Notes under the pieces: model-generated | Databases searched by the model: none | What the model saw: the letters and a program-made list of their open reading frames with translations, nothing else | Told to the model about the DNA's origin: nothing | Sequence record: PQ036202 | From: Escherichia phage GEP101 | Direction: 5' to 3' (one strand) | Length of the DNA stretch: 64,000 nucleotides | Part shown: positions 1,245-24,798 of the stretch, piece after piece | How positions within the stretch are numbered: position 1 is the stretch's first letter | How the letters are laid out: every line of letters starts with the position of its first letter | Program-made: the position numbers and the translations under genes

Positions 1245-2846
1245 ATGGACTTAAATGCTGTTAAGCAGAAGCGAGTGGAAGATGTTAGGAAAGTCCTAGC
1301 TGGAGAGTTGGGGCTTTCTGATGAAGTAAAAGAAATTATCAAATCATTCGGTAAAGACCCCTCTAAATTCCTTCCAACTCAAATTCTGACTTTATTAAGA
1401 TACACACCAGACCAAGTTAGACTTATCTTCAAATTGATGACTGATAAGAACTATGTAGCCCCTCAGCCGGGTTCTCAAGAGGTCTTTTTAAATACTAATG
1501 CTGACTTGGTTTTATATGGTGGTGCTGCTGGTGCTGGTAAAACTGCTGCATTGTTAATGGACTCTTTAAGGTTTATTGAAGACCCTAACTATAATGCTGT
1601 ATATTTCCGTCGAAATACAACACAGTTACAAGGTGGTTTATGGCCTGCTGCAAAGAAACTATTTGGTAAGTTTGGTGGGGTTCCTCACGAGCAGAAGATG
1701 ACTATCACATTCCCTTCTGGGGCAACTATTAAGTTCACCTACCTAGAACTTGAAAAGCACGCTGAAGGCCATCAGGGTATTGAATACTCAGCTATCTACT
1801 TTGACGAAGGTACACACTTCTCTGCTTCACAGATTTCGTACCTACAGACCCGTCTACGTTCTGGTGCTGAAGGTGACTCATACATGAAGATTTCTATGAA
1901 CCCAGATAGAGACCACTTCATTTATGATTGGGTAGAACCCTTCTTAGATGAAGAAGGTTACCCAGACCCTGAGAAGTGCGGTCGTATTCGTTGGTATGTT
2001 ATGAATGATGGTGTGATGGTTTCTGATTGGGAAAGAGACAAGATTCTTGAAATGTTCCCTCTTGAGATTCCTCAGACATACACCTTCATCTCTGGTACGA
2101 TTGATGATAACCCAATTCTTGACTTCTTAGAACCTAAATATCGTGGTAAGTTGGAAAACAACACACCTGTAAACGTTGCAAGACTTCGTTTCGGTAACTG
2201 GAAGGCTCGTGCAGAAGGTTCAAACTATTGGCAAAGACAATGGTGTGAGATTGTTGATTCACTCCCAGAAGATGTGTTTGATGTCAGAGCATGGGACTTA
2301 GCAGCAACTTTACCATCTGAGATTAACCCTAATCCAGACTGGACAGCGGGTGTTAAGATGGGTAAATCTAAAAAAGACGGTTGCTATTATATCATTGATG
2401 TAGTAAGATTTAGAGATAGACCCTCTGGAGTCGAAACACAAATTAATTTGACTGCTGAAAGTGACGGTAAGCGAACTGGTATTTTTATCCCTCAAGACCC
2501 AGGCGCTGCTGGTAAATCCTATGCAACATCCCTCATCAGGAAACTTGCCGAGAAAGGTTATCGCGCAAGAGCTAAACCAACAAATAAAGATAAAGTTACC
2601 CGCTTTGCGGGATTTTCTGCTGCTTCTGAAGCTGGACTTGTAAAAGTCTTGAGAGGTAGTTGGAATGAAGCTTACTTTCAAGAACTTGAAGGTTTTTGTG
2701 GTGATGGTAAAACTAAAGATGACCAAGTGGATGCTACCAGTGATGCTTTCAACAGTCTTAACGAAGTTAAATTATTCAAGCCACCATCAATGGGTGCTCA
2801 CACAGACTTAGTGAGAGGAAACCCATATGAGGGGCTTAGACGTTGA
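1245..2846 (+). CDS. terL: terminase large subunit
   Basis: ATG at 1245 with GGAGG RBS (listed ORF starts at TTG 1230); P-loop-like LYGGAAGAGKTAALL, IYFDEGTHF Walker B-like, gene directly precedes portal. Confidence 0.75.
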   Translation: MDLNAVKQKRVEDVRKVLAGELGLSDEVKEIIKSFGKDPSKFLPTQILTLLRYTPDQVRLIFKLMTDKNYVAPQPGSQEVFLNTNADLVLYGGAAGAGKTAALLMDSLRFIEDPNYNAVYFRRNTTQLQGGLWPAAKKLFGKFGGVPHEQKMTITFPSGATIKFTYLELEKHAEGHQGIEYSAIYFDEGTHFSASQISYLQTRLRSGAEGDSYMKISMNPDRDHFIYDWVEPFLDEEGYPDPEKCGRIRWYVMNDGVMVSDWERDKILEMFPLEIPQTYTFISGTIDDNPILDFLEPKYRGKLENNTPVNVARLRFGNWKARAEGSNYWQRQWCEIVDSLPEDVFDVRAWDLAATLPSEINPNPDWTAGVKMGKSKKDGCYYIIDVVRFRDRPSGVETQINLTAESDGKRTGIFIPQDPGAAGKSYATSLIRKLAEKGYRARAKPTNKDKVTRFAGFSAASEAGLVKVLRGSWNEAYFQELEGFCGDGKTKDDQVDATSDAFNSLNEVKLFKPPSMGAHTDLVRGNPYEGLRR

Positions 2847-2862
2847 TAGCTAGGTGAGAAGA

Positions 2863-4329
2863 ATGGCAGAAATTACAGAAACACAAGAAAGCTTACCACC
2901 ATTTAGAATGGGTGAAGTAGGTTCTTTGGGTCTGAAGGTTAAGAATGGTAGAATCTATGAAGAACCTCGTCAGGCACTAAGGTTCCCTGAAAGTATTAAA
3001 ACTTTCCAATTAATGATGCGTGACCCTGCTGTAGCAGCATCTGTAAATATTATTAAGATGTTTGTCAGAAAAGTCAACTGGAGATTCGTACCTCCAAAGG
3101 GAAAAGAGCAAGACCCTAAAATGCTTGAAAGAGCAGACTTCTTTAATTCTTTAATGGATGACATGGAGCATGATTGGGCAGATTTTATTAACTCTGTAAT
3201 GTCATTCTGCACTTATGGGTTCTGTGTTAACGAAAAGGTTTATAAGAAACGTCAGGGTAAAAAAGGGAAGTACCAGTCAAAATTTGATGATGGTCTAATT
3301 GGGTGGGCTAAATTACCAATCAGAAACCAGTCAACACTTGATAAGTGGTATTTTGACGAAGACTTTAGAAAAGTTACTGGTGTCAGACAAAATCTAAGAA
3401 ATGTTTCACATATTGCTGGAGCAATTAATCTTGGAGAAAGACCACTAACAAGAAAACTCCCACGAGCTAAATTCATGCTGTTTAAGTATGATGATGAGTA
3501 TGGTAACCCAGAAGGTCGTTCACCATTACTTAATGCTTATGTACCGTGGAAGTATAAAGTACAGATTGAAGAGTACGAAGCTGTTGGTGTTTCAAGAGAC
3601 TTAGTAGGTATGCCAAAGATTGGTTTACCACCAGATTATCTGGATGAAAATGCCGAACCTGAAAAGAAAGCTTTCGTACAATACTGCAAAACTGTTGTTA
3701 ATGATATGATTGCTAATGACAGAGCAGGTTTAATCTGGCCTAGATATATCGACCCAGAAACTAAAGAGGATATCTTTGAGTTCTCATTAGTTTCTAGACA
3801 GGGTGCTAAAGCATATGACACAGGCTCTATTATTGACAGATATTCCAAGCAAATTATGATGGCATTTATGTCAGATGTTCTTGCTATGGGTCAGTCAAAA
3901 TACGGTTCATTCTCTCTTGCAGATTCTAAGACAAGCTTATTAGCAATGTCAGTAGATATTCTGCTGAAGCAAATTAAGAACGTAATTAACCGTGATTTAG
4001 TTGCACAGACTTATGCTCTTAATATGTGGGATGATGAAGAACATGTGCAAATCACATATGATGATATCGAAACTCCAGACCTTGAAGCAATTGGTTCTTA
4101 TATTCAGAAGACTGTTGCAGTAGGTGCTTTGGAAGTTGACAAAGAGCTATCTAACAAACTTAGAGAGCATATTGGTCTTCCTCCTGCTGATGAGTCTCAG
4201 CCAGTATCTGAAAAGCTTTCTCCGAATAGCCAAAGCCGTTCAGGAGATGGTTATAAGACCGCTGGAGAAGGTACTGCAAAGACACCTTCAGCGAAAGACC
4301 CAAGCACAGCAAATAAGGCAAATAAATAA
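2863..4329 (+). CDS. portal protein
   Basis: about 490 aa immediately after terL, low-complexity charged C-terminus; ATG at 2863 with AGGTGA RBS. Confidence 0.6.
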   Translation: MAEITETQESLPPFRMGEVGSLGLKVKNGRIYEEPRQALRFPESIKTFQLMMRDPAVAASVNIIKMFVRKVNWRFVPPKGKEQDPKMLERADFFNSLMDDMEHDWADFINSVMSFCTYGFCVNEKVYKKRQGKKGKYQSKFDDGLIGWAKLPIRNQSTLDKWYFDEDFRKVTGVRQNLRNVSHIAGAINLGERPLTRKLPRAKFMLFKYDDEYGNPEGRSPLLNAYVPWKYKVQIEEYEAVGVSRDLVGMPKIGLPPDYLDENAEPEKKAFVQYCKTVVNDMIANDRAGLIWPRYIDPETKEDIFEFSLVSRQGAKAYDTGSIIDRYSKQIMMAFMSDVLAMGQSKYGSFSLADSKTSLLAMSVDILLKQIKNVINRDLVAQTYALNMWDDEEHVQITYDDIETPDLEAIGSYIQKTVAVGALEVDKELSNKLREHIGLPPADESQPVSEKLSPNSQSRSGDGYKTAGEGTAKTPSAKDPSTANKANK

Positions 4330-4829
4330 TGGCTGAAGTTATCTCTATTTCAAATGCTACACGAGTGCATTCGTATAGAGGTGTCCTTATCATTACTGAT
4401 AAGCTATCTGTAGAGGCTGGCTCAAGGGTCAGCCTTTCAGGTTATGTTAGTGATGGTGGAATCTCTGACGTTTTCACTATTTGTAGGTTACTTGATGCAC
4501 CAATGAGTGGAAAACCGTTTATTTCAGGAAATTGTAGTGAAATTGTTAAAATTCCATTTGACAGTTCATGCCTTTTGGGTGTAAAGTTATATAACTGCGA
4601 GAATAAACGTATCAATGTTAATAGCATTGAAGCCGCTTTCATTACCCTCGACACTGCATTTCAATCTCCAATGACAGTTAATAAAGAAACAAACAGACTT
4701 GAATACATTTTTTCACAAAATGATTACAAAGTACTTGTCAAAGGTAAAGTATATGATATGATTGTAAATGTGGTAGATGAATCTGGTAACCATTCAACAG
4801 TCCTTAAACAAAAAGTAAGGTTTAATTAA
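4329..4829 (+). CDS. hypothetical protein (head module)
   Basis: ORF between portal and protease, start overlaps portal stop. Confidence 0.4.
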   Translation: MAEVISISNATRVHSYRGVLIITDKLSVEAGSRVSLSGYVSDGGISDVFTICRLLDAPMSGKPFISGNCSEIVKIPFDSSCLLGVKLYNCENKRINVNSIEAAFITLDTAFQSPMTVNKETNRLEYIFSQNDYKVLVKGKVYDMIVNVVDESGNHSTVLKQKVRFN

Positions 4830-5161
4830 TGGGAACATTAACTATTGATGGTAAGAATAAAATCCTCGCCACGCTAACCCCAACGACTATTATTTTACAC
4901 AATGTAGACCCAACGGCAGACCCTACAGCAAATAAGGTTACTCAGCCAGTGGCTATTTATTTTTCTGAACCGGATAATGGCTTAATTGCCTCAGAAGACA
5001 CAGTTAATATTACTGTTCCAGCTTCTGCAACGGTCTCACACTATAGCTTGTGGGATGCTAACGATAAATGCGTGGCAACTGGTGCTCTTAGCAAACCTCA
5101 ATTCTTTGCTGAAGAAGGTATCTATGTTATCTCTTCAGTCTCTGTAGATTTAAACAAATAG
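4829..5161 (+). CDS. hypothetical protein (head module)
   Basis: 110-aa ORF, start overlaps upstream stop. Confidence 0.4.
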   Translation: MGTLTIDGKNKILATLTPTTIILHNVDPTADPTANKVTQPVAIYFSEPDNGLIASEDTVNITVPASATVSHYSLWDANDKCVATGALSKPQFFAEEGIYVISSVSVDLNK

Positions 5162-19363: not shown

Positions 19364-20218
19364 ATGTTTGAAAAGATTGATAGTGTTTATTACAAAACAC
19401 TTGATGAACGAACTGTAACACAGTTTAAAGACAAGTTTATCTACACAAGTATCTTGAAAGCAATCACTGATGAGTTACAAACATTAGAGGATGTCTGCTG
19501 GCAGATGCACACAGAAAGAAATATTAGGACGTCAGTAGGCCAACAACTTGATAATATTGGCTCACTGATTAAAGTTCCTAGACCTTTAGGTGCTGATGAT
19601 GAAACATATAGAGCTATGCTTTATATCCAAATCTTCCTAAGACGCTCTGACACTACTCCAACATTCTTGCAAAAAGCAATTATGACACTATATGGTGCAA
19701 CTTTCTCTCAGATTTTTGAGCATATTACTCCTAAGACTGGTGGCATCGTTATCCGTATCAACACTAGAAAAAGCGTTCTAGATGCTGCATATACACTGTC
19801 AAAGATTTCTGCAACAACCACTGGTTCTGCTGTTATCTTAAGAGATGTTACTTTAAATGGGACTGCTTGGACACCTGTAGAGGTTGCTGATTCAGCACTT
19901 GCCATTGTTGATGATAAAGAGAACTGGTTCGTAACTGATGCTAACAGGGGTCTGGTCACAAATAACACTGGTGGCTCTCTGGAGTCTAACCTAGTAGGGA
20001 GTCTTGCAGATGCTGGTGTTATTGATGGTTACTTTAAGGTTGACAGAACAGCAAACTCACAGAGTGATGATTATATGAAAGTAGATAGGTCTAATAATAG
20101 CGGATATTTCATCGCTGGTAAAGAAGCTGTTGCAGGTGGTGCATACGGAATCATGGCTGAGGTTGCACAAATTGTCAAAGGCAGAAAAGATAAATCACAA
20201 CAAGAAGGAAATTCTTAA
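19364..20218 (+). CDS. baseplate/tail fibre attachment protein (gpI-like), tentative
   Basis: 284 aa, gene order before tail fibre genes. Confidence 0.35.
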
Positions 20219-20520
20219 TGGCAGTTTTAAATTGGTCTACAAATGAAGTGGATGCTGATGGTAATCAGTTAAAAGTTTTACCACCACCGGAAATTCAAGA
20301 GACAGGTCTTTTAAAGGGTGAGCCTATGGGTAGACAGTGGTTCAACTATATTATCAACTACCTGCTGAATAAAGTAAACGGCACTGTTGGTGAAGTTCGC
20401 TCATACGCAACTGAGCAACCAGATTTAGTGGCTAATGGCTGGAATCTAATTAAGTCTGAGACAGGGACTGCATCAACAAGCACAAGAAACCTTTACACAT
20501 ATGAATATGTAGGAGCTTAA
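20218..20520 (+). CDS. hypothetical protein
   Basis: 100-aa ORF between baseplate and fibre genes. Confidence 0.3.
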
Positions 20521-20522
20521 TA

Positions 20523-21698
20523 ATGGCAGCAGGTGAAATTCAAATTAGTGCCTTGCCACAAGCGGCCTTACCAATTGATTTGAGTGATATCTTCCATCTT
20601 AAGCAAGGTGTTGAGGATAAAAGATGTACGCTTGAACAGTTGTTAGCACCTCACACATCTTTGAGGAATAACCCTCATGGTGTAACTAAATCACAAGTTG
20701 GTCTTGATAATGTTATTAACTCACTCCAATTGGTCGCAGCTAATAACTTGTCAGACATTGTAGATGTTGCTGAGGCAAGAGCAAATCTACAGATTATGTC
20801 GTCAGATGAAGTGAATAACTTAATCCAGCAACATATTGACGACAAAAGTAACCCACACAATACAACGAAAGCACAGGTTGGGTTAAGTAATGTTCAGAAC
20901 TGGACAACATCCAACCTGTACAATGAAGATGCTGATAAGTATGCTACCGCGAGAGCAGTGAATAATCTATACAAAGCTATCCAAGCATCTTATCCAGTAG
21001 GAACTATTCATCTGTCTGTTAATTCTGCTAACCCATCCACTTACCTGCTTTGTGGAGGCACTTGGGAGTTAGTCTCTAAAGGTAGGGCGTTAGTTGGTTA
21101 TGATACAGATTCTCGACCTGTTGGTTCAACGTTTGGTTCTCAGACTGTAGCGTTAACAAATAATAATTTACCAACACATACTCACTCTATCTATTTAACA
21201 GGTGGTGGTCATACACACTCTGCAAGTGTATCTGTCTCCAGTTTTGATTATGGTTCAAGAAGTACATCAACTTTCGATTATGGTACGAAGGCAACCGATG
21301 GTGCTGGTGCTCACGCTCACACGTTTAGTGGTACAACAAGTAATGAGGGTAACCATAACCATAGAGTACCTATGAGGGGTAACGACAGAGGTGGGTCAAA
21401 CGCTATTACTGCATCCGCTGATGCTGGTGTTGGGTATGCTGTGTATACTGATTTGGCTGGTGCTCACACTCATAGCTTCTCAGGCACGACTGCATCATCT
21501 GGTTATCATAGCCATACTGTTGCAATTGGTGCTCACAGCCACACTGTTAATATTGGTTCACATAGTCATACAGGTACTGTTACTGTTTCTAGTTCAGAGC
21601 ATACACACTCAGGAACATCTGGTTCTGTTGGTGGTGGGCAGGCTTTCAGTGTTGAGCAGCCATCTTTTGTAGTATATGTGTGGCAGAGGACAGCTTAA
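20523..21698 (+). CDS. tail fibre protein with fibre repeats and HxH-rich C-terminal domain
   Basis: Repeated NPH..TK.QVGL.NV motifs, multiple H-x-H triplets (HTHS, AHAHTF, AHTHSF, HSHT, AHSHT, HSHT, EHTHS), C-terminus ...YVWQRTA. Confidence 0.6.
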   Translation: MAAGEIQISALPQAALPIDLSDIFHLKQGVEDKRCTLEQLLAPHTSLRNNPHGVTKSQVGLDNVINSLQLVAANNLSDIVDVAEARANLQIMSSDEVNNLIQQHIDDKSNPHNTTKAQVGLSNVQNWTTSNLYNEDADKYATARAVNNLYKAIQASYPVGTIHLSVNSANPSTYLLCGGTWELVSKGRALVGYDTDSRPVGSTFGSQTVALTNNNLPTHTHSIYLTGGGHTHSASVSVSSFDYGSRSTSTFDYGTKATDGAGAHAHTFSGTTSNEGNHNHRVPMRGNDRGGSNAITASADAGVGYAVYTDLAGAHTHSFSGTTASSGYHSHTVAIGAHSHTVNIGSHSHTGTVTVSSSEHTHSGTSGSVGGGQAFSVEQPSFVVYVWQRTA

Positions 21699-21707
21699 TT
21701 TCTTTAC

Positions 21708-21728
21708 AGGGGCTTTATAGCCCCTTTT
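21708..21728 (+). terminator. hairpin with short T-run between the two fibre genes
   Basis: AGGGGCT-TTAT-AGCCCCT followed by TTT. Confidence 0.4.
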
Positions 21729-21744
21729 CAGAGGAAAATTTATA

Positions 21745-24120
21745 ATGGCAGATTACAAATTGAGTCAACTAAACTCAATCGACACAATTCGTTCAGAAGA
21801 CCTATTGCACATCAGAGTTAAGAAAAGACCTGAAATGTTGGGCGATGAAGACCGTAGAATGACCTATCAAGACTTCTTAGCTTCCTTCAAACTAGAAAGG
21901 TTTGTTCAGATTGCTGGGAGTACTATGATTGGGGATTTAGGTATTGTCAAGTTACTTTACGGTGGCAAGGCTGTATTTGACCCAACAGATTCTTCTGAGA
22001 TTACTATTGGGGATATTTTAAAGGCTTTTAAAATTAACTCAAATGGTCTTAAACTCACTATTGCAGATGCTTCAAGGTCGGCAACTGTTTATCATACTTT
22101 GAATAAACCAAGCCCTAATGAACTTGGCATGAGAACTAATGAAGAGAATGATGCAAGATATTCAAGATTGGCTGTAAGTAACACCTTTAGAGAAGCTCAA
22201 ACTATTCTCTCTAATAATGAGACTCTTATTGTTAAAAATATCACAAAAGGTGTAGCACTCTATATTCGCGGTAAAGATGCTGATGGTACTAATAGATGGT
22301 ATCTTGGTAATGACCAAAATGGTACAGATAATTTTGTATTGAAGAATGTAAAAACTGGTGTCTCAATTGCTATGTTAGAAAATTTAGCGTCAGTCAATAG
22401 CACTCTTCAAATCACGGGTCAAGTTCAACCTTCAGATTTCTCTAACTTAGACGCTAGATACTTTACTCAGACAGTTGCTAATCAGAGATTTGCACAGTTA
22501 GCTGCTAATAATACTTTTAGCGGTGAAAATACATTCAGTAAAGCTGTTTCCGTAGTAGCTAATAAAGCTGCTATCATGCTACAGAATAAAGACTTAAATA
22601 GTGAGTTGTTCATCCTAGCAAGAGATAGTGAATACAATAATCTATGGTTTATTGGTAAAGGAGATACCAGTTCTGATATCACATTCTATGATTACAAGGG
22701 TGGTACATCTATTACCTTAAACTCGTCTGGCGCAGTATTTAATAAGAATGTAAAAATCACTGGACAAGTTCAACCTTCTGATTGGACTAACATTGACTCT
22801 AGATATATTCCGGCAGCAACATTAAGTACGATTGCAAGAACTAATGCACAAAATACTTTTAATGGTGTGCAGAAAGTTGTTACGGATAATGAAGCCCTAA
22901 TTGTGAAAAACTCTACTCAGAACAGACCATTGTATATCCGTGGTGTGGACACTGCTAATGTTTCAAGATGGTGGGTAGGTGTTGGTGGGGCAGATACTAA
23001 TGATGTAACCCTAAATAACAGTTTTTCTGGCACTCAGTTAGTTTTAGGTAACTCATCTGCAAGTATCAATAAGACATTATCTCTAGCTGGACAGGTTCAA
23101 CCAAGTGACTGGTCTAACATTGATGCAAGATATTACGGTAAAGCCGAAGCCGATGCGAAGTATATCTGGTCAACATCCAGAGGCGCAGTAAGAGAAGAGG
23201 ATGGTAGCGTAGCTTGGAATCAACCTTCAGGAATCTATACAGAGCTTATCAAGGGTGGTGGTTCGAGCCGTTTAGTATTAAACCTCTTCACGAACGCCTC
23301 AACCTCTACACCATCTGCACAATTGAGATTCGATTACAGAAATGGTGGAATGTGGTACAGAACAGCCAGAGACGCATTTGGTTTTGAGGCTGAATGGTCT
23401 AAGGTTTACACTGAAGCTCAGAAACCAACCCCTTCAGAGATTGGTGCATACACTAAAGCAGAAACTGACCAGAAGATTGCAGAAGCGATTAGTGACTCTA
23501 CAGACCTGAATAAAATCTATCCAGTAGGTATTGTGACGTGGTTTAACAGTAATGTTAACCCTAATACAGCACTTCCTGGGTTAACTTGGACGTACCTGAA
23601 CAATGGTGTTGGTAGAACTATTAGAATTGCAGCAGCTAATGGCTCAGATGTTGCTACAACTGGTGGTTCAGATTCTGTAGCGTTATCTGTTGGTAACTTA
23701 CCTTCACACACGCATAGTTTCTCTGCTACCACTTCGACGTTTGATTATGGCACTAAGTACACAGATGGTCAGGGTGCTCACGACCATGATAGAGGTAATA
23801 TGGAAATTCATGGTGATTTTGGTTTCTTCAGGAGTGACGCATCAAGCTTCTACACTGCTAGTGGGTCTTTTGCTATCTCAGGTTCACAAGCATCTAGGGG
23901 GTACACAGGTAATAACTTCACTTATGGTACTCCTGTTAACTTCTATGCCTCTAGAACTTGGACAGGTAGAACAAGTTGGGTAGGTGCTCATGCACATGGT
24001 GTAGGTATTGGTGCTCACAACCATACGGTAAGTGGTAACACTGGTGTTACAGGTTCTGGTTCAGCATTTAGTGTTACTAACCAGTTCTATAAGCTAATGG
24101 CTTGGGTAAGGACTGCTTAA
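21745..24120 (+). CDS. tail fibre protein with three internal repeats and HxH-rich C-terminal domain
   Basis: Three copies of ...GQVQPSD(F/W)(S/T)N(L/I)D(A/S)RY...; C-terminal SHTHSF, STFDYGTKYTDGQGAHDHD, AHAHGVGIGAHNHT, ending ...AWVRTA, homologous to C-terminus of 20523..21698. Confidence 0.65.
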   Translation: MADYKLSQLNSIDTIRSEDLLHIRVKKRPEMLGDEDRRMTYQDFLASFKLERFVQIAGSTMIGDLGIVKLLYGGKAVFDPTDSSEITIGDILKAFKINSNGLKLTIADASRSATVYHTLNKPSPNELGMRTNEENDARYSRLAVSNTFREAQTILSNNETLIVKNITKGVALYIRGKDADGTNRWYLGNDQNGTDNFVLKNVKTGVSIAMLENLASVNSTLQITGQVQPSDFSNLDARYFTQTVANQRFAQLAANNTFSGENTFSKAVSVVANKAAIMLQNKDLNSELFILARDSEYNNLWFIGKGDTSSDITFYDYKGGTSITLNSSGAVFNKNVKITGQVQPSDWTNIDSRYIPAATLSTIARTNAQNTFNGVQKVVTDNEALIVKNSTQNRPLYIRGVDTANVSRWWVGVGGADTNDVTLNNSFSGTQLVLGNSSASINKTLSLAGQVQPSDWSNIDARYYGKAEADAKYIWSTSRGAVREEDGSVAWNQPSGIYTELIKGGGSSRLVLNLFTNASTSTPSAQLRFDYRNGGMWYRTARDAFGFEAEWSKVYTEAQKPTPSEIGAYTKAETDQKIAEAISDSTDLNKIYPVGIVTWFNSNVNPNTALPGLTWTYLNNGVGRTIRIAAANGSDVATTGGSDSVALSVGNLPSHTHSFSATTSTFDYGTKYTDGQGAHDHDRGNMEIHGDFGFFRSDASSFYTASGSFAISGSQASRGYTGNNFTYGTPVNFYASRTWTGRTSWVGAHAHGVGIGAHNHTVSGNTGVTGSGSAFSVTNQFYKLMAWVRTA

Positions 24121-24199: not shown

Positions 24200-24397
24200 A
24201 TGCCTACAATCCTAGCAATTCTTCTAAAAAATCTAGGTAGCTTCTTCTGGAAACTCATTTTATCCCTTCTAAGTGAATACATGATTGAGAAAGTGTTCTT
24301 TAGACTTGCAAGATACCTTGCGAGTAAGACAGACACACCTATTGATGATGAGTTCGTAGATAACTTAGAAAAAGCTTTTAAGGGGGAGAATAAATGA
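24200..24397 (+). CDS. small hydrophobic protein
   Basis: 65 aa with hydrophobic N-terminal segment. Confidence 0.3.
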   Translation: MPTILAILLKNLGSFFWKLILSLLSEYMIEKVFFRLARYLASKTDTPIDDEFVDNLEKAFKGENK

Positions 24398-24765
24398 AGT
24401 GGCTAGAGGAAGCTTTTAAAAATAATATTGGTGCAATTGTAGTTGGTATTTTTAGTGTTATTGGGATGTATACCACCATGCAAGTTTCGGAAGGTAAACA
24501 AGAAGTGTCTATCACAACAAAGTTACAGCAGTTGGATAATTATTCCAAAAGTAATTATTCAGCTATTCGTGATTTACAGTCTGATATGAGGCTGCTTCAG
24601 CTAGGGATGGAGAACCAGAAAGTCCAGTTAGAGAATGTTAAGGGTGAGAACGCAAAACTTACTAAGACTCTTGATAAATTCTCTGATAGTGTGAACAATC
24701 TGGCTCAATCAGTATCAGCCCTCCAAGCTATTACTGAAAAGAACACAAAGAATACTGAAAAGTAA
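24394..24765 (+). CDS. membrane-anchored coiled-coil protein
   Basis: N-terminal TM-like segment IGAIVVGIFSVIGMY then coiled-coil-like sequence. Confidence 0.3.
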   Translation: MKWLEEAFKNNIGAIVVGIFSVIGMYTTMQVSEGKQEVSITTKLQQLDNYSKSNYSAIRDLQSDMRLLQLGMENQKVQLENVKGENAKLTKTLDKFSDSVNNLAQSVSALQAITEKNTKNTEK

Positions 24766-24770
24766 AGTTT

Positions 24771-24798
24771 AAGGCTCCTTTTTACGGGAGCCTTTTTT
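24771..24798. terminator. hairpin terminator between convergent transcription units
   Basis: AAGGCTCC-TTTTTACG-GGAGCCTT followed by TTTTTT on + strand; lies between end of + block and end of thyA on - strand. Confidence 0.5.

Follow-up and report, generated by a model that had tools for sequence, protein, structure and literature searches.

The stretch analysed here (64,000 nt of Escherichia phage GEP101, sequence record PQ036202; hereafter the window) carries two adjacent genes for tail-fibre proteins, a short tail fibre (STF) of 391 amino acids (aa) and a long tail fibre (LTF) of 791 aa. By sequence comparison, the C-termini of the two proteins are homologous and are tips of the T4 gp37 type. 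The window as a whole groups by nucleotide similarity with the genus Felixounavirus and is assigned to a Felix O1-like E. coli myophage. We consider it very likely that the two proteins are the Felixounavirus baseplate STF and LTF and that they form homotrimers with gp37-type receptor-binding tips, the heads of which most likely address two lipopolysaccharide (LPS) epitopes. The two genes are:

20523..21698, + strand: STF gene, 391 aa; orthologue of Felix O1 gp76, Bas63 gp26 and Sf14 gp52 (open reading frame, ORF; PHROG 2097)
21745..24120, + strand: LTF gene, 791 aa; orthologue of Felix O1 gp77, Bas63 gp27 and Sf14 gp53 (ORF; PHROG 4277; gene order)

STF matched PHROG 2097, annotated 'tail fiber protein', with E = 1.4e-132, and LTF matched PHROG 4277 over the full length (1312.7 bits, reported E = 0); no NCBIfam model was found for either fibre. 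Synteny and end-to-end similarity both support orthology with the Felixounavirus fibres: overall identity to Bas63 is 74% for STF (gp26) and 68% for LTF (gp27), and identity to Felix O1 outside the variable cassettes is 83-100% across the pair.

Homology of the two tips to T4 gp37

BLASTP aligned STF aa 157-391 with LTF aa 592-791 (34% identity, 22% gaps, E = 2e-21). This bears out a sequence-only reading of the same DNA, which had proposed that the two proteins end in homologous segments and had quoted example segments that are indeed paired with each other in the alignment. The quoted strings are present in the sequence except for one letter (the actual string is TFDYGTKATDG..., not SFDYGTK...). 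The alignment extends to the collar, which is not repetitive (YPVG...W...G), and to the C-terminal strand, and in it LTF HAH749 and HNH758 face STF HSH338 and HSH347. A similar terminal W.RTA, also proposed, was found as VWQRTA in STF and AWVRTA in LTF; across 50 homologues of LTF aa 586-791 the W is invariant and the R is conserved in at least 90%. Given this conservation, and since the terminus of T4 gp10 (YRWIRIA) resembles the fibre ends, W.RTA appears to be the conserved last strand that returns the chain into the collar. In the AlphaFold2 prediction, which represents a single, ligand-free chain, the last residues of LTF are packed against the collar with a predicted local distance difference test (pLDDT) score of 93.

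His-x-His (HxH) motifs occur nine times in STF (aa 219, 230, 264, 278, 315, 329, 338, 347 and 360) and four times in LTF (aa 655, 679, 749 and 758). Composition-preserving shuffles contained on average 1.43 and 0.14 such motifs, respectively, and none of 5000 reached the observed counts, so the density noted in the sequence-only reading does exceed chance. In T4 gp37, seven HxH motifs coordinate Fe on the trimer axis (summarised in PMC12609058). The likeness to gp37-type tips that had been suggested was readily detected: STF aa 146-362 matched the solved tip (2XGF) with E = 1.3e-24, while LTF gave a weaker match alone (4.2e-5) and E = 1.8e-14 when used as a profile of 50 homologues. All seven T4 motifs are faced by an HxH of STF, six of them in one ungapped block of 103 residues and the seventh in the preceding block. 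STF and T4 gp37 have heads of nearly equal length between their HxH arrays, 34 and 35 residues, in an alignment block free of indels. For LTF, combining the STF-LTF and STF-2XGF alignments equates HDH679, HAH749 and HNH758 with T4 motifs 2, 6 and 7; the register is thus only partly kept. From this homology we infer that the HxH motifs of both fibres coordinate metal.

The collar itself is more widely shared. Pfam Gp10_C (PF21939) describes a collar domain common to T4 gp10, gp11, gp12 and gp37, and STF passes its cutoff of 27 with 67.7 bits over aa 154-276; the STF collar also matched gp10 in the PDB (2FKK, E = 2.4e-6). T4 gp12, with its Zn-binding receptor domain (1OCY/1PDI), showed no specific similarity to STF beyond this collar. 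We therefore do not regard STF as a gp12 orthologue.

Architecture of the tips

Both tips can be divided into collar, descending strand, head, ascending strand and return segment:

20982..21176, + strand: STF collar, aa 154-218, T4 gp10 C-terminal-like fold (Pfam Gp10_C PF21939; gp10 2FKK; gp37 2XGF)
21177..21362, + strand: STF descending needle strand, aa 219-280, with HxH at 219, 230, 264 and 278 and two FDYG repeats (aligned to the T4 gp37 descending strand)
21363..21464, + strand: STF head segment, aa 281-314, 34 aa; predicted receptor-contacting tip, variable cassette (alignment, divergence)
21465..21608, + strand: STF ascending needle strand, aa 315-362, with HxH at 315, 329, 338, 347 and 360 (four align to T4 gp37 ascending HxH)
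21609..21695, + strand: STF C-terminal return segment, ending VWQRTA (W.R.A conservation in homologues)
23500..23706, + strand: LTF collar, aa 586-654
23707..23787, + strand: LTF descending needle strand, aa 655-681, with HTH655, one FDYG repeat and HDH679 (HxH conserved in homologues)
23788..23988, + strand: LTF head, aa 682-748, 67 aa, no HxH; DRGNMEI...ASGSF...ASRTWTG family (cassette boundary, homologue family)
23989..24024, + strand: LTF ascending needle strand, aa 749-760, with HAH749 and HNH758 (at least 90% conserved; aligned with STF and T4)
24025..24117, + strand: LTF C-terminal return segment, ending AWVRTA (90-100% identity to Felix O1 and Bas63)

Fold-back of the needle was assessed indirectly, by asking how the lengths of its two halves co-vary in 48 homologues. 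Descending ~10-aa FDYGTK repeats and ascending 9-aa GAHxHTV rungs were correlated in number (Spearman 0.87, p = 7e-16), the two being paired 1:1 in 19 cases and 2:2 in 16, and the descending and ascending 12-15-aa HxH rungs were likewise correlated (rho 0.83). The HxH spacings of STF are mirror-like, at 11, 34 and 14 before the head and 14, 9, 9 and 13 after it. Co-varying halves and mirror-like spacings are what an up-and-down hairpin needle predicts, and by this indirect test the descending and ascending strands are paired, with the chain folding back at the head. In the alignment of these homologues (50 for LTF aa 586-791), the needle of the gp37 type appears as a modular ladder: one more FDYGTK repeat (~10 aa) comes with one more GAHxHTV rung (9 aa), a distal 14-aa descending HxH rung is accompanied by a 14-aa ascending one, and a chain has between 2 and 9 HxH in all.

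In the model that we propose, each fibre would be a homotrimer ending in a T4 gp37-type tip. Each chain would leave the gp10-like collar, descend a thin beta-needle, make a small distal head, climb back and end in the collar as the W.RTA strand. At every HxH the three chains would together supply six histidines that cage one metal ion on the three-fold axis, which in T4 gp37 is Fe(II), and these ions would rivet the three intertwined chains. Because the ions would hold the chains together, the histidines are probably structural, and the receptor would be contacted by the head between the two HxH arrays. There could be up to nine metal sites per short fibre and four per long fibre. STF is predicted to carry a full-length, T4-like needle (nine HxH, 34-aa head) and LTF a truncated needle (four HxH) with a larger, aromatic-rich head of 67 aa.

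A family of 67-aa heads in the long fibre

Within LTF, H679 and H681 are invariant and the other three HxH reach at least 90% conservation among the 50 homologues, down to 32% identity. Felix O1 and many other phages match the window LTF at ~92% up to HDH679-681 and not past it, which places a cassette boundary at about aa 681; over aa 691-750 identity to Felix O1 is 16-23%. Two kinds of LTF tip can be told apart. One, with four HxH (spacings 24 before and 9 after the head) and a 67-aa head, is found in the window, ECOH1, HY02-like phages and a few other E. coli phages; the other, with six HxH (24 and 14 before, 14 and 9 after) and a head of 31-45 aa, is found in most relatives, including Felix O1 and Bas63.

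Aromatic residues make up 13 of the 67 head residues (19%), and 27 of the 67 are Gly, Ser or Thr. An exhaustive search of 1.84 billion proteins gave 34 cluster representatives of this head at E <= 1e-3, with the consensus HxHxRGTMEITG...ASGAF...FxASRTWTGxTS...HxH and ~15 near-invariant positions (R683, G684, M686, I688, G690, G707, F709, F733, A735, S736, W739, G741 and T743 plus the flanking His). A Pfam scan assigned no model to the head, and head-only sequence and profile searches found no relative in the PDB, the profile matches ending at the HxH flanks. In the phage collection, most carriers of the family had E. coli O157/Shiga toxin-producing E. coli (STEC), Shigella flexneri or Citrobacter as isolation host. 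As a working hypothesis, an R3 LPS core type may underlie this link between the 67-aa head and O157/STEC/Shigella hosts. It is possible, though on the doubtful side, that the 67-aa aromatic-rich head represents an uncharacterised family of receptor-binding domains that replaces the distal two-thirds of the gp37-type needle and that, together with the T4-like STF head, would give this lineage two glycan specificities.

Shafts and internal repeats

Upstream of the tips, the following shaft features were recognised:

20670..20906, + strand: STF shaft, two copies of NPHxxTKxQVGLxNVxN (aa 50-68 and 110-128; copies at 20670-20726 and 20850-20906; motif positions)
21745..22149, + strand: LTF N-terminal baseplate-binding region and first shaft domain, aa 1-135 (86-100% identity to Felix O1, ECOH1 and Bas63)
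22150..23169, + strand: LTF repeat domains R1 (aa 136-245), R2 (aa 246-360) and R3 (aa 361-475), each ending GQVQPSD[FW]xNxDxRY (BLASTP; Pfam gp37_trimer)
23170..23499, + strand: LTF fifth shaft domain D5, aa 476-585, Mu S / P2 gpH / P1 S-like, exchangeable cassette (Pfam gp37_C; PDB 8JU3)

The baseplate-binding role of the LTF N-terminus is taken from the Bas63 cryo-electron microscopy (cryo-EM) structure (PMC12609058). The sequence-only reading had also described three internal repeats of about 120 aa in LTF. The repeats are real: pairwise BLASTP of segments 136-245, 246-360 and 361-475 gave 32-42% identity (E = 2.5e-21, 1e-30 and 4e-24). Their period was overestimated, since the motif GQVQPSD[FW]xN[LI]DxRY lies at aa 225, 340 and 449 and the repeats therefore follow at 115 and 109 aa. 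Self-BLAST of the whole fibre proteins at 1e-3 returned the identity match only, and the repeats emerged from segment-against-segment comparison. Pfam gp37_trimer (PF20744) covered three stretches of LTF above the gathering cutoff (223.9 bits, E = 1.7e-67), and R2 matched T7 gp17 (4A0T/4A0U, E about 5e-6).

These three repeats are the central members of a series of five tandem shaft domains, which the sequence-only reading had not noticed. The first domain (about aa 55-135) is more diverged and precedes R1, and conserved linkers of the P[ST][PD] type lie between the domains at aa 122, 229, 344, 453 and 561. The repeat-domain cores are variable (~30% versus Felix O1) and the linkers conserved. 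D5 matched Pfam gp37_C (PF12604) above the gathering cutoff (61.6 bits, E = 8e-17), and its aa 480-579 matched Mu fibre S (PDB 8JU3, E = 5.1e-23); by tblastn the best match was DE17 (83.5%), with Peduovirus H and P7 S also matched. The closest backbone relatives (JN01, ZX4221, KEP2 and ECOH1) carry a different domain at this place, ~58 aa longer; D5, too, has been swapped.

In STF, aa 96-132 were matched by many PHROG tail-fibre families. As these otherwise unrelated families match just the NPHxxTKxQVGLxNVxN stretch, it looks like a widespread fibre building block.

Mosaicism of the fibre genes

Over bases 1-25000 the window shares 96-97% identity with E. coli O157 Felixounaviruses, JN01 among them, while the fibre region reaches ~91% at a coverage of 75-90%; the fibres are thus the divergent portion of an otherwise conserved genome. 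Against JN01, the closest backbone relative, DNA identity is ~98% in the flanks, 77-87% in the STF needle and head (21208-21477), ~50% in the R1 and R2 cores, 51-68% from the end of R3 through D5 and 60-70% in the LTF head (23728-23997). In comparisons with relatives, the loss of identity in the fibres coincides exactly with the segment bounded by the HxH arrays, and collar and C-terminus remain 90-100% identical, in keeping with the head as the specificity cassette. For STF, the head is 33-36% identical to that of Felix O1 and the rest of the protein 83-96%, and at least four STF head types occur among relatives. Neither ECOH1 nor DE17 accounts for both the LTF tip and D5: the tip is closest to phage ECOH1 (97.5%), whose D5 is different and larger, and the tip of DE17 is only 81% identical.

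Among relatives, we observed that one head peptide, GGRYGGDSIGGKxRVxVSGTEQVSSVAGDHSH, is carried on both fibres in Felix O1 (L001, NC_005282) and in L016, L018 and L020. We also noted that the long-fibre frame is shortened in L004 (EC6-like) and L019 (Si3-like), downstream of 6170, to 541 and 453 aa; the EC6 annotation splits its LTF into two hypothetical proteins. These short frames would stem from a frameshift or a sequencing error in the LTF gene.

Alternative explanations

Could the HxH segments be low-complexity His/Gly/Ser/Thr lookalikes with no common ancestry or fold? The region is compositionally biased, and HMMER assigned large bias terms to its 2XGF matches. The STF-LTF E-value was nevertheless obtained with composition-based statistics, the alignment extends into sequence that is not repetitive (collar and C-terminal strand), the match to T4 gp37 includes the long ungapped block, the motif positions are kept in the 50 homologues, and shuffling never produced the HxH counts of the two proteins. 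These comparisons refute coincidence, which we regard as extremely improbable. The second possibility raised in the sequence-only reading, recent domain exchange (taken here as gene conversion or recombination of one fibre gene with the other), would give both fibres essentially the same tip and the same receptor. Such exchange has precedent in the genus: the two fibre genes of Felix O1 (NC_005282, 1514-2680 versus 2731-5079) share 270 nt at 81% over needle and head, and their head peptides are 95% identical between STF and LTF, with 81-100% in L016, L018 and L020 (100%, 84% and 81%). This suggests, from the sequences, intragenomic tip exchange in the Salmonella clade of the genus. In the window, by contrast, the two genes share a single stretch of 52 nt at 75% DNA identity, the protein modules have diverged to the 34% identity and 22% gaps given above, and the heads are unrelated (34 versus 67 aa; 29% identity in a forced global alignment). 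On the DNA, protein-module and head comparisons, recent exchange is refuted for this genome and we consider it very improbable. With the same heads in Felix O1-type phages and unrelated heads in the window and E. coli-type phages, the genus holds both states.

The two fibres might also act in successive steps on one host, with a T4-like division of labour in which LTF makes the first reversible contact and STF, as a functional analogue of gp12, binds irreversibly and triggers contraction. Several observations would suit this: in Bas63, LTF attaches to a platform on wedge 1 and STF to wedge 2 (PMC12609058); fibres of two lengths would suit contact in sequence; among relatives the STF scaffold hardly varies, and LTF tips come in at least two architectures; and the collar belongs to the gp10/gp11/gp12 superfamily. 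We rate this arrangement as possible but rather unlikely. The reading we prefer is that of two gp37-type tips whose unrelated heads most likely recognise two different LPS epitopes; dual receptor specificity, which the sequence-only reading had offered as its first possibility, is plausible given such heads. For the genus, genetics on Bas63 and VpaE1 point to the LPS core as receptor (PMC8594841, PMC4690856), and a 2026 receptor-screen preprint places Felixounavirus only among clades known for use of O-polysaccharide or an LPS moiety; the abstract of a preprint on O157:H7 adsorption does not mention Felixounavirus (PMC13419801). Some points weigh against the reading of two gp37-type, LPS-binding tips. 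LTF retains counterparts of only three of the seven T4 needle motifs, and it has an extra collar-proximal motif (NLPxHxH) that T4 lacks. Its Gp10_C score is only 24.9 bits, just under the curated cutoff of 27; precomputed PF21939 matches are present for close homologues of LTF. Finally, PMC8594841 calls the receptor 'elusive'.

Fibre tips set which bacteria a phage infects, and Felix O1-like phages are used in Salmonella diagnostics and E. coli O157 biocontrol. The exchangeable cassettes mapped here are the STF head (aa 281-314), the LTF head (aa 682-748), D5 and the R1 and R2 cores; this map, with the contrast between identical and unrelated heads among relatives, is useful for the design of fibre swaps and for host-range prediction from sequence. 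Should head type prove to follow the LPS core type, this fibre pair would offer a compact natural system in which host range can be read from sequence. The 67-aa head family and the contrast between one-head and two-head phages in the genus are modest leads.

Comparison with known fibres

The two-fibre gp37-type architecture is already in the literature, and the window does not hold a new kind of system. C-terminal similarity to T4 gp37 was reported for Felix O1 gp76 and gp77 in 2010 (PMC3185647) and for VpaE1 gp74 and gp75 in 2015 (PMC4690856). The Sf14 fibres, described by cryo-EM in 2025, are 391 and 792 aa long and contain domains resembling T7 gp17, Mu gp49 and gp10_C (PMC11821841). Cryo-EM of Bas63 (2025) showed STF gp26 and LTF gp27, both with a gp37-like collar, HxH needle and head; Bas63 STF has seven HxH, Bas63 LTF has six along with five beta-helix repeat domains, and the tips differ between members of the genus (PMC12609058). 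Our HxH counts for Bas63 (MZ501086) agree with the published figures. Fibre lengths measured on Bas63 and Sf14 are ~430 Å for STF and ~630 Å for LTF.

Bas63 (Escherichia phage JohannRWettstein) resembles the window in genus, gene order, two-fibre design and the five tandem LTF beta-domains. Its tips differ: the Bas63 STF has seven HxH and three FDYG repeats and lacks the distal descending HxH, whereas the window STF has nine HxH in a T4-like register; the Bas63 LTF has six HxH plus HHNH at 692-695 and a head of ~32 aa, whereas in the window LTF a 67-aa head from a different family goes with four HxH. The heads of the two phages are 13-26% identical. The fibres of Felix O1 are orthologues, and its ORF76 is annotated 'Putative tail fiber protein GP37' in NC_005282. 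Felix O1 STF has the same needle scaffold as the window (nine HxH; spacings 11, 34, 14 and 14, 9, 9, 13 on either side of the head). Felix O1 differs in carrying a near-same 31-aa head on both fibres (95%) and six HxH in LTF, where the window has two unrelated heads, and in infecting Salmonella, while the window's closest relatives infect E. coli O157/STEC.

T4 gp37 and the window STF share the order collar, needle, head, all seven T4 HxH and a similar C-terminal hydrophobic-R-x-A end. STF has two extra HxH near the collar, and of the needle LTF retains no more than the collar-proximal part. In T4, the gp37 tip caps a four-protein fibre of ~1450 Å and needs the chaperones gp38 and gp57A. The window tips, in contrast, cap single-protein fibres, and the ORFs and PHROG matches of the locus include no fibre-chaperone gene adjoining them, whether of the T4 type or, beside LTF, of the Mu U / P2 G type. 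Sf14 likewise has no chaperone gene beside its fibres (PMC11821841).

Related tips also occur in prophages of Erwinia, Mixta, Serratia, Photorhabdus and Providencia, in proteins of 200-350 aa annotated 'phage baseplate protein' with PF21939. They are 40-50% identical over 99% of the LTF collar-needle-head module and have the same HxH positions and the same terminal W.R.A, but differ in their short P2-like shafts (PF03406, PF12571), in having 2 to 9 HxH and in heads that are mostly 31-37 aa long. D5 resembles Mu S (8JU3), P2 gpH and P1/P7 S, with 41-46% identity to P2-like and P7 fibres. The window LTF has this domain within its shaft, followed by a gp37-type tip; tips of that kind are absent from Mu-type fibres (PMC11821841).

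Gene neighbourhood

Gene order is common to the window, Felix O1, JN01 and Bas63: wedge, wedge, a 100-aa protein, STF, LTF, a 65-aa and a 123-aa protein, then td and frd on the opposite strand. On the 5' side of the fibre pair the window encodes a Baseplate_J wedge protein (489 aa), a baseplate protein (284 aa) and the 100-aa protein:

20218..20520, + strand: gene of the 100-aa protein, directly 5' of the fibres (PHROG 4141, E = 4e-61, no function annotated)

Its position and length match Felix O1 ORF75 and Bas63 bas63_0025. By synteny, rather than by alignment, it is probably the long-fibre platform equivalent to Bas63 gp25, the role being that described in PMC12609058.

The 46-nt gap between the STF stop and the LTF start contains a small GC-rich hairpin followed by TTTT (GGGGCT-ttat-AGCCCC-TTTT, 21709-21728). 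Its T-run falls below the threshold of the terminator scanner, and it may act as a weak terminator or attenuator between the fibre genes. On the 3' side of LTF are ORFs at 24200-24397 (65 aa) and 24394-24765 (123 aa), matching PHROG 402 and 4038, both annotated without function; relatives have a holin annotation on one of these two small ORFs, which in JN01 is the 123-aa gene. A strong hairpin terminator follows at 24771-24794, and with it comes the change to the minus-strand block of td (thymidylate synthase) and frd (dihydrofolate reductase). At the left end of the window, tRNA-Ser(GCT) and tRNA-Cys(GCA) genes occupy 628-800 and presumably belong to the tRNA cluster typical of Felix O1-like phages.

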